A stretch of DNA of 3,273 nt from Escherichia coli (GTDB lineage: Bacteria; Pseudomonadota; Gammaproteobacteria; Enterobacterales; Enterobacteriaceae), in the NCBI RefSeq assembly GCF_003334255.1, contig NZ_QOWU01000123.1. The stretch is one strand, 5' to 3'. The notes under the pieces were generated by a model. It made no database searches. It was given only the letters and a program-made list of their open reading frames with translations, and was not told the DNA's origin. The translations under genes were made by a program, and so were the position numbers. Positions 1-3,273 of this stretch are shown here, piece after piece (the stretch's first letter is position 1; each line of letters starts with the position of its first letter).

Positions 1-29
1 ATCGACGATTGCTGGAAAGGCTGGGCCAT
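1..29 (-). CDS. 5' end of an outward-reading ORF of unknown function (MAQPFQQSS..., runs off the left edge); mirror copy of the start at 3261
   Basis: Minus-strand ATG at 29..27 preceded by the reverse complement of GGAGGAG at 39..33; nine codons are visible before the window edge. It lies inside the left inverted-repeat arm, so it is sequence-identical to the right-arm start. Only a few codons are visible, so coding status is tentative. Confidence 0.3.
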
Positions 30-132
30 ACTCCTCCGGCAGAAGCAGAAAAAGCTTATTATGCTTCCATCGGAAACAATGATCTGGCAGCCTGAGTTCA
101 CAGATAAAACACTCTCCAGGAAACCCGGGGCG
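17..132. repeat. Left arm of long inverted repeat (at least 116 bp)
   Basis: Reverse complement of 3158..3273 equals 17..132 at 115 of 116 positions; the single mismatch is at 78 (A) versus 3212. Pairing stops at 133/3157. The outer end coincides with the window edge, so the repeat may be longer. Confidence 0.93.
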
Positions 133-458
133 GTTCAGATGGGCGTCTAAGTTACCAATTCTCGTCTGATGGCTACATACGGCGGTCAGTTTACGCTTAC
201 AAAACTACAGCCCTGGGTAGTTGCAGTTCAGGACGTTGGGATGATCAGGATGAATGGGGGGAGCAAGCACGGGGAATCAGAGATGCAATTAATGCTAAAC
301 TTGATGATCCGCACAAATGGAAAAGGAAAAAATGCAGGTTGCATATGGAATTCTCCCGGGATGGCACGGCTTTAAAAATATCAACCAGTGACGGCGATAA
401 AGCCTATTGCGAAGCGATAAAGTCAGCAGCCCATAAAGCTAAATTCCCGGCTTTCAAG
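108..458 (+). pseudogene. TolA C-terminal domain (domain III)-like ORF fragment; no in-frame start, 3' end interrupted or displaced by the IS256-family element
   Basis: The frame containing 108..575 is open after a TAA at 105..107 and has no ATG or GTG before 345. Positions 276..458 translate to IRDAINAKLDDPHKWKRKKCRLHMEFSRDGTALKISTSDGDKAYCEAIKSAAHKAKFPAFK. From memory, E. coli TolA ends ...IKSAIESKF...KTCTLRIKLAPDGMLLDIKPEGGDPALCQAALAAAKLAKIPKPP...; the two Cys (codons 333..335 and 408..410) are 25 residues apart in both, with DG and GD at the same offsets. The overlapping ORF from ATG 169 is in a different frame, and a G6 run at 256..261 separates the two frames. Confidence 0.5.
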
Positions 459-459
459 G

Positions 460-481
460 GAGTGTTAGAAATTCTGTGTCA
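460..481. repeat. Putative left terminal inverted repeat of the IS256-family element
   Basis: GAGTGTTAGAAATTCTGTGTCA matches the reverse complement of 3065..3086 (GAGCGCTCAGAATTCTGTGTCA) at 16 of 22 positions, including a perfect 12-bp core. It lies 33 bp upstream of the transposase ATG. Confidence 0.35.
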
Positions 482-514
482 TTCCAGTAATATACAACCA
501 AAAAGGAATGACAC

Positions 515-1046
515 ATGTCCCAACCCTTCGATTTCGATAAAGCGCTTAAGGCCCTCCAGTCCGGCCAAGCATTAACCGGCAAGGATGGTATCCTAACGCC
601 ATTAATCAAACAGTTAACAGAAACCGCTCTGGCCGCTGAACTCGACTCCCATCTGGCTCAGGATGTTGAAGTCAATCGTAAAAATGGTTCCGGAAAAAAG
701 ACCATTAAAGCCCCGACTGGCAGCTTTGAGCTGGCAACTCCACGTGATCGTAATGGTTATTTTGAACCCCAACTGGTGAAGAAGCACCAGACCACGCTGT
801 CTGATGAGCTCGAGCGCAAGATCATTCGCCTGTTCGCGCTGGGGATGAGCTACCAGGATATCAGCCGGGAGATCGAAGATTTATCCCCTTCAGTGTTTCC
901 ACGGCTACCATCAGTGCGGTTACCGATAAAGTCATTCCTGAGTTAAAACAGTGGCAGCAGCGCCCGCTGGAGAAGGTTTATCCCTTCGTCTGGCTGGACG
1001 CCATTCACTATAAAATCCGCGAAGATGGGGGTTATCAGAGCAAGGC
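515..1046 (+). pseudogene. IS256-family transposase, 5' portion; frameshifted near 884..888 and then interrupted by IS2
   Basis: ATG at 515 with AAGGA at 503..507. The translation MSQPFDFDKALKALQSGQALTGKDGILTPLIKQLTETALAAELDSHLAQ...TPRDRNGYFEPQLVKK... carries motifs I recognise from IS256-type (Mutator-like) transposases. The starting frame stops at 944..946, but the homologous sequence continues one frame over from about 883 (IPFSVSTATISAVTDKVIPELKQWQQRPLEKVYPFVWLDAIHYKIREDGGYQSKA), implying a 1-nt indel in the C run 885..888. The frame is then broken at 1047 by IS2. Confidence 0.85.
1042..1046. repeat. IS2 target-site duplication, left copy (AAGGC)
   Basis: AAGGC immediately precedes the IS2 terminus TAGACTGG at 1047 and is repeated at 2378..2382, directly after the other terminus. 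Confidence 0.9.
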
Positions 1047-1087
1047 TAGACTGGCCCCCTAAATCTCCAGACAACCAGTATCACTTA
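1047..1087. repeat. IS2 terminal inverted repeat (insC-proximal end)
   Basis: About 41 bp, imperfectly matching the reverse complement of 2336..2377. Shared blocks are CCCC, TCCAGACA and TATCACTTA. It contains the internal palindrome TATCACTT-ATTT-AAGTGATA at 1079..1098. Confidence 0.6.
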
Positions 1088-1137
1088 TTTAAGTGATAGT
1101 CTTAATACTAGTTTTTAGACTAGTCATTGGAGAACAG

Positions 1138-1503
1138 ATGATTGATGTCTTAGGGCCGGAGAAACGCAGACGGCGTACCACACAGGAAAAGATCGCAATT
1201 GTTCAGCAGAGCTTTGAACCGGGGATGACGGTCTCCCTCGTTGCCCGGCAACATGGTGTAGCAGCCAGCCAGTTATTTCTCTGGCGTAAGCAATACCAGG
1301 AAGGAAGTCTTACTGCTGTCGCCGCCGGAGAACAGGTTGTTCCTGCCTCTGAACTTGCTGCCGCAATGAAGCAGATTAAAGAACTCCAGCGCCTGCTCGG
1401 CAAGAAAACGATGGAAAATGAACTCCTCAAAGAAGCCGTTGAATATGGACGGGCAAAAAAGTGGATAGCGCACGCGCCCTTATTGCCCGGGGATGGGGAG
1501 TAA
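1138..1503 (+). CDS. insC: IS2 OrfA (InsC), 121 aa helix-turn-helix regulator and N-terminal part of the OrfAB transposase
   Basis: ATG at 1138 with GGAGA at 1128..1132. The translation [56 protein letters not shown]...LLPGDGE matches the IS2 InsC sequence as I remember it. The ORF-track start at 1093 is an upstream in-frame extension without an RBS. Confidence 0.95.
1455..1461 (+). other. IS2 programmed -1 ribosomal frameshift site (A AAA AAG) joining insC to insD
   Basis: AAAAAAG lies in the insC/insD overlap, and insD is in the -1 frame relative to insC. This is the known IS3-family recoding arrangement that produces the OrfAB transposase. Confidence 0.8.
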
Positions 1504-2366
1504 GCTTAGTCAGCCGTTGTCTCCGGGTGTCGCGTGCGCAGTTGCACGTCATTCTCAGACGAACCGATGACTGGATGGATGGCCGCCGCAGTCGTCACAC
1601 TGATGATACGGATGTGCTTCTCCGTATACACCATGTTATCGGAGAGCTGCCCACGTATGGTTATCGTTGGGTATGGGCGCTGCTTCGCAGACAGGCAGAA
1701 CTTGATGGTATGCCTGCGATCAATGCCAAACGTGTTTACCGGATCATGCGCCAGAATGCGCTGTTGCTTGAGCGAAAACCTGCTGTACCGCCATCGAAAC
1801 GGGCACATACAGGCAGAGTGGCCGTGAAAGAAAGCAATCAGCGATGGTGCTCTGACGGGTTCGAGTTCTGCTGTGATAACGGAGAGAGACTGCGTGTCAC
1901 GTTCGCGCTGGACTGCTGTGATCGTGAGGCACTGCACTGGGCGGTGACTACCGGCGGCTTCAACAGTGAAACAGTACAGGACGTCATGCTGGGAGCGGTG
2001 GAACGCCGCTTCGGCAACGATCTTCCGTCGTCTCCAGTGGAGTGGCTGACGGATAATGGTTCATGCTACCGGGCTAATGAAACACGCCAGTTCGCCCGGA
2101 TGTTGGGACTTGAACCGAAGAACACGGCGGTGCGGAGTCCGGAGAGTAACGGAATAGCAGAGAGCTTCGTGAAAACGATAAAGCGTGACTACATCAGTAT
2201 CATGCCCAAACCAGACGGGTTAACGGCAGCAAAGAACCTTGCAGAGGCGTTCGAGCATTATAACGAATGGCATCCGCATAGTGCGCTGGGTTATCGCTCG
2301 CCACGGGAATATCTGCGGCAGCGGGCTTGTAATGGGTTAAGTGATAACAGATGTCTGGAAATATAG
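1461..2366 (+). CDS. insD: IS2 OrfB (InsD), 301 aa DDE integrase-like catalytic domain
   Basis: Open frame from GTG at 1461 to TAG at 2364..2366. The translation ...[21 protein letters not shown]...[50 protein letters not shown]... matches IS2 InsD as I remember it, with the IS3-family DDE region. It overlaps insC in the -1 frame. Confidence 0.95.
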
Positions 2367-2377
2367 GGGCAAATCCA
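2336..2377. repeat. IS2 terminal inverted repeat (insD-distal end)
   Basis: Reverse complement TGGATTTGCCCCTATATTTCCAGACATCTGTTATCACTTAAC aligns imperfectly with 1047..1087. Confidence 0.6.
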
Positions 2378-2382
2378 AAGGC
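2378..2382. repeat. IS2 target-site duplication, right copy (AAGGC)
   Basis: Direct repeat of 1042..1046, immediately after the IS2 terminus at 2377. Confidence 0.9.
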
Positions 2383-3053
2383 AGTTTATACCGTACTGGC
2401 GCTGAATCTGGAAGGCAAAAAAGAAGTCCTGGGCCTGTATTTGTCGGAAAGCGAAGGCGCTAACTTCTGGCTGTCAGTATTAAGTGATCTGCAAAACCGT
2501 GGCGTTGAAGACATTCTGATTGCCTGCGTGGATGGGCTGACCGGCTTCCCTGAAGCGATAAACAGCATTTATCCGCAGACAGAGGTACAGTTGTGCGTCA
2601 TTCACCAGATACGTAACTCGATTAAATATGTGGCGTCAAAACACCATAAAGCGTTCATGGCCGACCTGAAGCCAGTGTATCGTGCGGTGTCAAAAGAAGC
2701 AGCGGAAACGGCGCTGGATGAGCTGGAAGCGAAATGGGGGCAGCAATATCCGGTGGTGCTCCAGTCCTGGCGCCGCAAGAGGGAAAATCTGTCAGCGTAC
2801 TTCCGCTATCCGGCGAATATCCGCAAGGTGATCTACACAACCAACGCGATAGAATCAGTCCACCGCCAGTTCAGGAAACTGACCAAAACCTAAAGGTGCT
2901 TTCCCAAATGAAAACAGCCTGTTGAAGCTACTTTATCTGGGACTGATGAACGCACAGGAGAAATGGACAATGCCCATCCAAAGCTGGAATTTGACATTGT
3001 CGCAGTTAGCCATTTATTTTGAAGGGCGGCTGAATAATGTGATGACGCTGTAG
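2378..3053 (+). pseudogene. IS256-family transposase, 3' portion; additional frameshift at about 2891
   Basis: Resumes exactly after IS2 (...YQSKA / VYTVLALNLEGKKEVLGLYLSESEGANFWLSVLSDLQNRGVEDILIACVDGLTGFPEAINSIYPQT...) and runs to TAA at 2891..2893. Homology then continues one frame over from 2892 (KGAFPNENSLLKLLYLGLMNAQEKWTMPIQSWNLTLSQLAIYFEGRLNNVMTL) to TAG at 3051..3053, implying a 1-nt insertion near 2891. The motifs DILIACVDGL...FP and KW.MPIQ.W are typical of IS256-family transposases. Confidence 0.85.
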
Positions 3054-3064
3054 AATTTTTAACG

Positions 3065-3086
3065 TGACACAGAATTCTGAGCGCTC
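3065..3086. repeat. Putative right terminal inverted repeat of the IS256-family element
   Basis: Inverted partner of 460..481; begins 12 bp after the transposase stop. It contains the 8-bp palindrome GAGCGCTC. Confidence 0.35.
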
Positions 3087-3107
3087 TCAAATTAAAATCA
3101 TCGATAT

Positions 3108-3137
3108 TTAACAAGTTTAAATTATTAAGATTATTTT
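3108..3137 (+). promoter_or_regulatory. Candidate sigma70-like promoter in the AT-rich spacer, reading rightward into the right repeat arm
   Basis: TTAACA at 3108..3113 (5 of 6 to TTGACA), then 17-18 bp to TTATTT/TATTTT at 3131..3137. The surrounding 3087..3157 is about 80 percent A+T. Such matches occur readily by chance in AT-rich DNA. Confidence 0.2.
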
Positions 3138-3157
3138 AATCAAGATTAAAAGTGAAT

Positions 3158-3273
3158 CGCCCCGGGTTTCCTGGAGAGTGTTTTATCTGTGAACTCAGGC
3201 TGCCAGATCATCGTTTCCGATGGAAGCATAATAAGCTTTTTCTGCTTCTGCCGGAGGAGTATGGCCCAGCCTT
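3158..3273. repeat. Right arm of long inverted repeat (at least 116 bp)
   Basis: Reverse complement is identical to 17..132 except at one position (3212 C versus 78 A). The arm runs to the last base of the window. Confidence 0.93.
3261..3273 (+). CDS. 5' end of an outward-reading ORF of unknown function (MAQP..., runs off the right edge); mirror copy of the start at 29
   Basis: GGAGGAG at 3253..3259, then ATG at 3261; the frame is open to the window edge. Same sequence as the left-arm copy because it lies in the inverted repeat. Confidence 0.3.

Follow-up and report, generated by a model that had tools for sequence, protein, structure and literature searches.

Insertion sequences of the IS256 family transpose by a copy-out/paste-in mechanism, generate 8-bp target duplications and prefer A/T-rich targets (PMC7780238), and passage through a circular intermediate has been established for both IS256 and ISCth4 (PMC7780238). 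The element that we describe here, from Escherichia coli (contig NZ_QOWU01000123.1), resembles IS256, ISCth4 and IS1414 in having a single 400-aa DDE/Mutator-type transposase, a length of ~1.3 kb, imperfect ~24-bp terminal repeats and 8-bp A/T-rich duplications. Its transposase shares ~46% protein identity with that of IS1414, which carries astA, while by eye this element does not. Unlike a typical family member, the copy studied here is dead, with two frameshifts and an IS2 nested inside it, and has no duplication, since its left flank has been exchanged. NCBI annotation names the element only by the generic term "IS256 family transposase."

IS copies with unmatched flanks are a textbook signature of recombination between copies, of IS-mediated adjacent deletion or of replicon fusion. 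The present copy fits this signature, with one ancestral and one foreign flank, a breakpoint at the IS tip and loss of the former neighboring DNA, but differs in that its partner copy and reciprocal product were not found among E. coli genomes and metagenome contigs. A close known counterpart is the chromosomal ireA island of ExPEC (CFT073, APEC O1 and S88 type), which has the same relic, right flank and ireA at ~99% identity, whereas our module lies on an I-complex-derived plasmid and is bounded by the left tip of the relic and by IS100. In CFT073-type chromosomes the relic itself is truncated or split near a point equivalent to position 557-562 of the window, by which we mean the whole 3,273-bp stretch of DNA analyzed. 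Its features are as follows:

1-137, plus strand: end of an IS3-family (IS629/IS1203-like) element; tip ...CCCGGGGCGGTTCA at 137, the rest running leftward beyond the window
138-200, minus strand: IS66-family (ISEc23-like) terminal stub, 63 bp; terminus at 200, reverse complement beginning GTAAGCG
201-457, plus strand: internal fragment of a TolA C-terminal-domain gene (nt 121-377 of 432), from an I-complex plasmid backbone (mobA-nikB-TolA-like)
458-481, plus strand: left terminal inverted repeat, GGGAGTGTTAGAAATTCTGTGTCA; terminus fixed by L003, L008 and L019
458-1046, plus strand: left part of the IS256-family relic; transposase start codon at 515
1047-2377, plus strand: IS2 (IS3 family) nested in the relic, 1331 bp; duplication AAGGC at 1042-1046 and 2378-2382
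2383-3088, plus strand: right part of the IS256-family relic; right terminal repeat at 3065-3088
3089-3096, no strand: AAATTAAA, surviving right copy of the original 8-bp duplication, present on both sides in L003 and L004
3089-3152, no strand: chromosomal ireA-island sequence, AT-rich and intergenic (64 bp), with no differences in L003 and L004
3153-3273, minus strand: terminal part of another IS629/IS1203-like element, oriented opposite to the one at 1-137

Termini and nested anatomy of the element

Two independent copies with perfect 8-bp duplications place the ends of the element at 458 and 3088, for a total span of 2631 bp. The first is an intact 1295-bp relative of 90% identity on the Klebsiella pneumoniae plasmid CP052264.1 (L008, 2444-3738), whose homology bounds are exactly equivalent to 458/3088 and which lies between two perfect copies of GATTTTTT; the second is the chromosomal ireA-linked copy (L003 and L004), with identical ends and an exact AAATTAAA on either side. 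The termini of an intact copy in E. coli GF130 (L019, 94% identity) agree with these positions; this copy has no duplication, its two flanks are contiguous in no other genome, and it supports the termini only. The first-pass annotation had placed the ends at 460 and 3086 and allowed that they might be off by a few base pairs, which proved correct (each lay 2 bp too far in), but the correction reveals no duplication. Aligned in register, the left and right terminal repeats agree in 18 of their 24 bases, including an unbroken core of 12 nt.

The span reaches 2631 bp because an IS2 is nested inside, and subtracting it leaves 1295 bp; neither this nesting nor the fragmentary state of the TolA-like ORF figures in the first-pass annotation. 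Positions 1047-2377 have the length of IS2 (1331 bp), two overlapping ORFs (1093-1503 and 1461-2366) annotated as "IS3-like element IS2 family transposase" with a programmed frameshift, and a 5-bp duplication; the uninterrupted relic in L003 has only one AAGGC, evident as a 5-bp overlap of two alignment blocks. The 2.6-kb "IS256 element" is two nested elements, and 458-3088 is a single decayed copy of a 1295-bp IS256-family IS that has suffered two frameshifts in addition to the IS2 insertion: a window-specific 1-nt deletion at 884/885, which shifts the transposase frame, and an extra T at 2891, which is common to the chromosomal copies.

Assignment to the IS256 family, as the first-pass annotation had proposed, holds: the reconstructed 400-aa transposase matches NF033543 ("IS256 family transposase") with 413.7 bits (E = 4.9e-124; curated cutoff, 150), and at 1295 bp without IS2 the element falls within the compact ~1.2-1.5 kb of the family and has imperfect terminal repeats. 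The 8-9 bp duplication expected of the family is likewise borne out for the element type, at 8 bp in the two independent copies (L008 and L003/L004), but not for the window copy, whose unmatched flanks reflect flank exchange and so are no argument against membership. Intact 400-aa transposase ORFs with an identical left repeat are present in relatives from both E. coli (L019) and Klebsiella (L008).

An ancestral right flank and a left flank within a TolA-like gene

At the corrected ends, the element is flanked by GCTTTCAA on the left (450-457) and AAATTAAA on the right (3089-3096). As these agree at only 4 of 8 positions in AT-rich DNA, we conclude that a target duplication is absent in the window, consistent with the earlier failure to find a direct repeat around the element. 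Comparison with uninterrupted homologous loci, namely the TolA-like gene of pTX313-1 and two related islands without the element (L011 and L012), identified the left flank as foreign and the right flank as ancestral. The two islands have a single AAATTAAA at the insertion point. Where the locus is uninterrupted, ireA ends with its stop codon ~145 bp rightward of the element. The native left flank of the island reads ...CCTAAATTAAA/GGGAGTG (element start after the slash). The element occurs together with the ireA-island right flank in ~290 genomes, and the window copy differs from the chromosomal copies at 14 positions (~1% divergence). The element originally inserted once, at an AT-rich intergenic AAATTAAA site of the chromosomal island immediately downstream of the siderophore-receptor gene ireA, with a normal 8-bp duplication. 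The window element retains the ancestral right flank (AAATTAAA, island DNA and ireA), while its left tip meets the interior of the TolA-like gene in a base-precise join.

The TolA-like fragment at 201-457 is 97.3% identical to intact genes on pTX313-1 (L005) and pO111-CRL-115 (L018), and homology stops at 457. In pTX313-1 the intact homologue is a 432-bp gene (L005, 2381-2812) that continues past this point as CAATCCGGAAG...TAG, where the window has GGGAGTGTTAG... instead. The gene is broken within codon 126, after which the window reads AAATTAAAATCATCG..., and its final 55 nt (18 codons plus the stop) are missing. Its remaining 3' sequence (CAATCCGG...) is absent across the whole 99.8-kb plasmid G8 and was not found in pDETEC45 up to 20 kb from the junction (43 kb examined). 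At the other end, the fragment is cut at 200/201 by the end of an IS66-family element, and the 5' portion of the gene is found upstream on the I-complex backbone.

The reading frame through ...AKFPAFK goes on as GVLEILCHSS... until a stop at 575. Because the match to the homologue ends at 457, the K of AFK is a hybrid codon, with AA from the TolA-like gene and G from the IS, and the first-pass annotation was right to read the tail as IS sequence. The open frame at 339-575, which extends back to at least 138, does not represent a gene but is chimeric, combining the tip of an IS66 element, internal TolA-like sequence and an IS256 end. Even the intact 143-aa homologue scores below the cutoffs of the full-length TolA equivalogs (53.4 bits for NF007065, where the cutoff is 213, and 44.9 bits for TIGR02794, where it is 59.45), the TolA NCBIfam profiles matching its C-terminal domain only. 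The product is a small TolA C-terminal-domain protein, distinct from TolA.

The junction between the TolA-like gene and the IS is 100% identical in four complete, independently assembled plasmids (Germany, China and a pig-feces isolate), and four metagenome contigs of differing sample origin carry it too. Among the titles and abstract openings that a literature search on ireA, plasmids and ISs returned, none deals with it.

Routes to the exchanged flank

A break located exactly at the transposon tip points to transposase chemistry, rather than random breakage, as its origin. We consider it likely that the window element is an island-derived IS copy whose left flank was exchanged by insertion and recombination, bringing ireA to the plasmid. 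Because neither the partner copy nor the reciprocal product was found, the exact route, in two steps, is one that we infer. First, a copy of the IS would have inserted into the TolA-like gene between 457 and 458, duplicating GCTTTCAA. Homologous recombination between this copy and the ireA-linked copy would then have fused the two replicons, with subsequent imprecise excision at other ISs; in a variant of this step, the DNA separating two direct copies on the same molecule would have been deleted. Either way, the product would be a single hybrid copy joining the TolA 5' part, the IS and ireA, with loss of the TolA 3' end and the reciprocal junction. This recombination would have carried ireA onto the plasmid, and the IS2, ISEc23 and IS629-like insertions would have been added later.

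In support of insertion and recombination, the +1 T frameshift shared by the window element and the chromosomal copies places them in the same lineage. On plasmid G8, island homology extends through ireA to a point equivalent to L003 position 8939, where IS100 interrupts it, and no second copy of the element was found there. Counting against this reading, the ireA-linked copy already had the +1 frameshift, so that the transposase must have come from another copy; the intact relatives supply such a source, making both insertion of a copy and mobilization in trans plausible. The 14 positions that differ from L003 show an even spread and, judged against the L008 outgroup, mixed polarity, and so are uninformative on a crossover; comparison with L003 and this outgroup revealed no mosaic marking a crossover point within the element.

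The predicted intermediate or reciprocal junction (right IS end, GCTTTCAA, then CAATCCGG...) was found neither among the complete genomes of E. coli (5,426) nor in the metagenome contig collection. Like the lack of a crossover mosaic, this weighs against the two-step route.

An unlikely alternative is a one-step intramolecular event, in which an ireA fragment and the element were already on the plasmid and an active IR-IR junction or IS dimer, or the left end of the element, attacked the nearby TolA-like gene, deleting the intervening DNA without there ever being a separate second copy. Such an event would yield the same product (one original and one new flank, no duplication, and loss of the intervening DNA and the TolA 3' end), and it is consistent with the reciprocal junction being found nowhere among the E. 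coli genomes and metagenome contigs. Deletion pathways of this kind are described for IS30, another copy-out/paste-in element (PMC9333248). Against this, the standard outcome for the IS256 family is simple integration of the circle (PMC7780238). The inactivating frameshift is also older than the divergence from the chromosomal copies, so that transposase would be needed in trans. Finally, no plasmid with both the native left flank of the island and an intact TolA-like gene was found, outside the plasmid-borne matches to that flank (39 of 1,131).

We give almost no credence to a simple insertion into the TolA-like gene whose duplication was missed through misplaced termini or has decayed. The initial ends were indeed 2 bp off and the flanks do share 4 of 8 bases, but the termini defined from three further copies still give GCTTTCAA versus AAATTAAA. 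The right flank is ireA-island DNA over 64 bp and not the TolA 3' end, whose continuation is absent from the plasmid, and the element has diverged by just ~1% from the chromosomal copies. Decay along with the element, as offered in the first-pass annotation, is contradicted by an intact right copy of AAATTAAA, by only 14 differences within the element and by a left flank 97% identical to the TolA-like gene. A clean duplication with an intact TolA-like stop codon upstream, which that annotation said would overturn its account, was looked for at the fixed termini and not found. With AAATTAAA and island DNA at right and TolA at left, the duplication was neither missed nor decayed; the left flank was replaced. 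Flank comparison, the absent TolA 3' end and the fixed termini together refute a simple insertion. The first-pass observation is therefore confirmed and its interpretation partly supported: its suggestion that an element-mediated deletion or rearrangement removed the 3' end of the ORF agrees with an ancestral right flank, an exchanged left flank and the absence of the 55 nt from the plasmid.

A chimeric assembly join at repeated sequence is scarcely credible, although both window ends are repeat sequence and one metagenome contig (L015) looks suspiciously doubled, since the junction lies in unique sequence and is contradicted as an artifact by its recurrence in the four independently assembled plasmids and four metagenome contigs.

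The mismatched flanks are an ordinary scar of IS-driven rearrangement, an event of a known kind, and beyond correct annotation the significance is small. In terms of method, the locus is a clear example of a missing target duplication that marks a secondary rearrangement, with comparative loci recovering the original duplication. For epidemiology, it places ireA, a siderophore-receptor virulence factor, on I-complex-derived plasmids in commensal/probiotic-type and hospital-associated E. coli, with the IS tip as one boundary of the transferred segment. Beside the TolA-like gene, the I-complex backbone carries a 297-bp ireA-like remnant of 86% identity. More tentatively, the junction could be the footprint of capture of the chromosomal ExPEC virulence gene ireA onto I-complex conjugative plasmids at this remnant, possibly a hint that plasmids and chromosomal islands have repeatedly exchanged a TolA-like/TonB-dependent-receptor module with the help of homology.

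The real ireA adjoins the TolA-like gene exactly at the site of the remnant, a coincidence that random insertion, as in the two-step route, leaves unexplained.

Neighboring insertion sequences

The left end of the window (1-137) forms a 121-nt inverted repeat of 98% identity with 3153-3273. A whole 1311-bp copy with the same end as the 1-137 element lies at 79778-81088 of NZ_CP060058.1, where the annotation gives an IS3 family transposase and notes an ALIL pseudoknot; the element is IS629/IS1203-like, a name that the annotations of other matches also carry.

The 63 bases of the 138-200 stub match many records at 98-100%. At the position of the stub, plasmid G8 has a full ISEc23 (annotated ISEc23 tnpA/tnpB/tnpC) with ISEc45 nested inside it and an 8-bp duplication, AAAACTAC, around it; bases 201-208 of the window are one copy of this duplication. 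Both this duplication, seen through G8, and the GTAAGCG terminus, presumably the conserved tip of the IS66 family, place the stub in that family. Because the junction of the TolA-like gene with the IS256-family relic is also present on contigs without the ISEc23 insertion (L013 and L014), it predates that insertion.

Two plasmid matches covering 49% of the window (H12 and H16) proved uninformative, being other contexts that share pieces of IS3-family, IS2-like and other IS256-family elements. The IS629-like end (1-137) is joined to the ISEc23 stub in none of the records of the E. coli and plasmid collections, and the best-matching records there align to the window from base 135 onward.

Ends of the IS256-family element

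The whole window (3273 bases) consists of stacked pieces of mobile elements of E. coli plasmid origin. Plasmids of strains G8 (NZ_CP060058.1) and G6/7, and CP055726.1, share positions 135-3273 at 100% identity; in plasmid pDETEC45 the 100% match covers 135-3147.

Features of the window
1-137: end of an IS3-family (IS629/IS1203-like) element; inverted copy at 3153-3273 (121 nt, 98%)
138-200: IS66-family terminal stub, 63 bp; complete ISEc23 at the same place in plasmid G8
201-457: internal fragment of a TolA C-terminal-domain gene
458-3088: IS256-family element, with IS2 inside
1047-2377: IS2, 1331 bp; 5-bp duplication AAGGC at 1042-1046 and 2378-2382
3089-3152: AT-rich DNA, found downstream of ireA in chromosomal islands

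The reconstructed transposase matches NF033543 (413.7 bits, profile search), and an intact relative was found on Klebsiella pneumoniae plasmid CP052264.1. Nucleotide homology between the Klebsiella copy and the E. coli relic is bounded exactly by the equivalents of 458 and 3088, and the Klebsiella copy has a perfect GATTTTTT repeat on both sides. Chromosomal E. coli copies beside the siderophore-receptor gene ireA (L003 and L004) have identical ends and a perfect AAATTAAA repeat, a sequence present once at the insertion point in related islands without the element. Together, these matching ends and flanking repeats define an element of 1295 bp, reading GGGAGTG...GCTCTC, with imperfect 24-bp terminal repeats that match at 18 positions. 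Its target duplications of 8 bp, in A/T-rich sites, agree in length and target with what is expected of the IS256 family (PMC7780238). IS2 is complete and nested in the transposase gene with a clean AAGGC duplication, and is present in all examined carriers of the junction between the TolA-like gene and the element. The relic variant in a metagenome sequence (L016, 619-620) is missing 54 bp, corresponding to window 766-819, and is otherwise collinear, IS2 included.

Within the element, 475-485 (inner left terminal repeat) pairs with 505-515 (transposase ribosome-binding site and start codon) in a perfect 11-bp stem; the RNA fold of this region is -19.5 kcal/mol (z = -3.6). Insertion sequences commonly use a device that blocks translation of read-through transcripts from outside, and the stem looks like such a block.

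A replaced left flank

The first-pass annotation had placed the ends at 460 and 3086, saw no flanking repeat, and offered misplaced ends, decay, or rearrangement as the reason. Each end was indeed 2 bp too far in, but beside the true ends stand GCTTTCAA (left) and AAATTAAA (right), so the duplication is absent as reported and misplacement is ruled out as its cause. Decay fares no better. The right-hand AAATTAAA is the remaining half of the ancestral duplication and is followed by 56 more bp of island DNA, the whole of 3089-3152 being identical to chromosomal loci; on plasmid G8 the island homology extends through ireA up to an IS100 boundary. The window copy belongs to the ireA-linked lineage: it carries that lineage's +1 T frameshift at 2891, and only 14 differences, evenly spread, separate it from L003, against 133 for the intact Klebsiella copy. 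The surviving AAATTAAA, the island DNA, and the low divergence from L003 show that the duplication did not decay; rather, the left flank has been swapped for plasmid DNA.

That plasmid DNA is the TolA-like gene. Intact, the gene is 432 bp long and occurs on plasmids of pO157 type and IncK/Z, including pTX313-1 (L005) and pO111-CRL-115 (L018), where it adjoins the relaxase gene; it matches the window at 97.3% identity up to base 457. Beyond it, the intact gene reads CAATCCGGAAG...TAG and the window reads GGGAGTGTTAG; the break falls within codon AAC, with loss of 55 nt (18 codons and the stop). As first described, the frame ...AKFPAFK continues into the element as GVLEILCHSS.... The 5' side is likewise cut, at 200/201, by insertion of ISEc23 (IS66-family), which is full length in plasmid G8 (NZ_CP060058.1 72840-76833), with ISEc45 nested in it and an 8-bp duplication, AAAACTAC. 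Because the fragment is truncated on both sides, the reading frame across it, which is listed from 339 but stays open back to at least 138, is no gene but a chimera.

The 5' part of the TolA-like gene lies upstream, in the mobA-relaxase backbone, while the 3' remainder was found neither anywhere on plasmid G8, which also counts against decay, nor within 20 kb of the junction in pDETEC45. With an ancestral right flank, a plasmid-derived left flank, and no TolA 3' end on G8, the supported alternative is a rearrangement that removed the 3' end of the reading frame. Flanks that do not match on the two sides of an insertion sequence are a well-known mark of such IS-mediated events. Assembly artefact is ruled out, as the same junction is present in other complete plasmids (100%) and in metagenome contigs. 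Two of these contigs (L013 and L014) have the junction without ISEc23, so the junction is older than the ISEc23 insertion. The finding is of value for annotation and local epidemiology only.

Possible routes to the junction

That the break coincides exactly with the transposon tip points to transposase chemistry. Transposition in the IS256 family is by copy-out/paste-in, yielding simple insertions (PMC7780238), and a two-step route is the most economical. A copy would have entered the TolA-like gene at 457/458 and then undergone homologous recombination with the ireA-linked copy. This would have either fused the replicons, with excision following later at other insertion sequences (IS100, for example), or deleted the DNA between direct copies, leaving a single hybrid copy and no TolA 3' end. 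The transposase, or the inserting copy, could have come from intact relatives in E. coli (L019) and Klebsiella (L008), whose left repeats are identical. The main rival is a one-step intramolecular deletion via an IR-IR junction or IS dimer, a route described for IS30 (PMC9333248). The reciprocal junction was not found in 5,426 complete E. coli genomes or in the metagenome contig collection, and comparison with L003 and the Klebsiella copy gave no crossover mosaic inside the element; with neither, the two-step and one-step routes are not separable here.

Random insertion leaves a further coincidence unexplained. I-complex backbones carry a 297-bp ireA-like remnant (terminator and 3' end; 86% identity to ireA) about 100 bp downstream of the TolA-like gene and convergent with it, and the real ireA of the window's plasmid lineage has the same orientation and relative position. 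Homology may have aided exchange, or such plasmids may formerly have had a full receptor gene.

Positions of the ireA-like remnant
L018 (pO111-CRL-115): 3838-4131
L005 (pTX313-1): 2863-2962
L015 (ERZ779896 contig): reverse strand, after the TolA stop

The metagenome contig L015 (reverse-strand 2518-11095) holds the TolA-IS256 junction and also a TolA 3' end that is intact and has an ireA-like gene after it. Between the two lies an approximately 2.7-kb repeat in two copies, inserted at TolA 220-227. Either this double structure is a true duplication, or the assembly ran through two alleles.

Other rearrangements around the element

An intact copy of the element (94% identity, full 400-aa transposase) lies between pptA and an RHS region in the E. 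coli GF130 chromosome (L019, 2501-3795). It has no target duplication at its ends, and its two flanks are contiguous in no other complete E. coli genome; by its flanks, it is a second copy located at a rearrangement junction. The relic linked to ireA begins only at about window 557 (~557-562) in chromosomes of the CFT073, APEC O1, and S88 type, and in some such genomes the island left flank and the element's initial ~105 bp are at a distant locus (for example NZ_CP126926.1, 931705-932110 versus 4727809-4729069), indicating that another rearrangement split the relic in those lineages.

At the left of the window, ISEc23 is reduced to 63 bp and abuts the IS629-like end at 137/138, a join with no record in E. 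coli or plasmid collections. The IS629/IS1203-like ends at 17-137 and 3153-3273 are 98% identical and inverted, with the same end inward, and enclose 3015 bp, perhaps as a composite-transposon-like or invertible arrangement, or perhaps simply because the contig ends in repeats. In plasmid G8 (NZ_CP060058.1 79778-81215), 127 bp of foreign sequence come after a 1311-bp IS629-like element and take the place of 18 bp of island; immediately to the right of the IS256 end in pDETEC45 (L017), the IS629-like element is absent, the 127 bp are kept after CA, and AAAAG is lost. These differences show that more small rearrangements took place between the relic and ireA.
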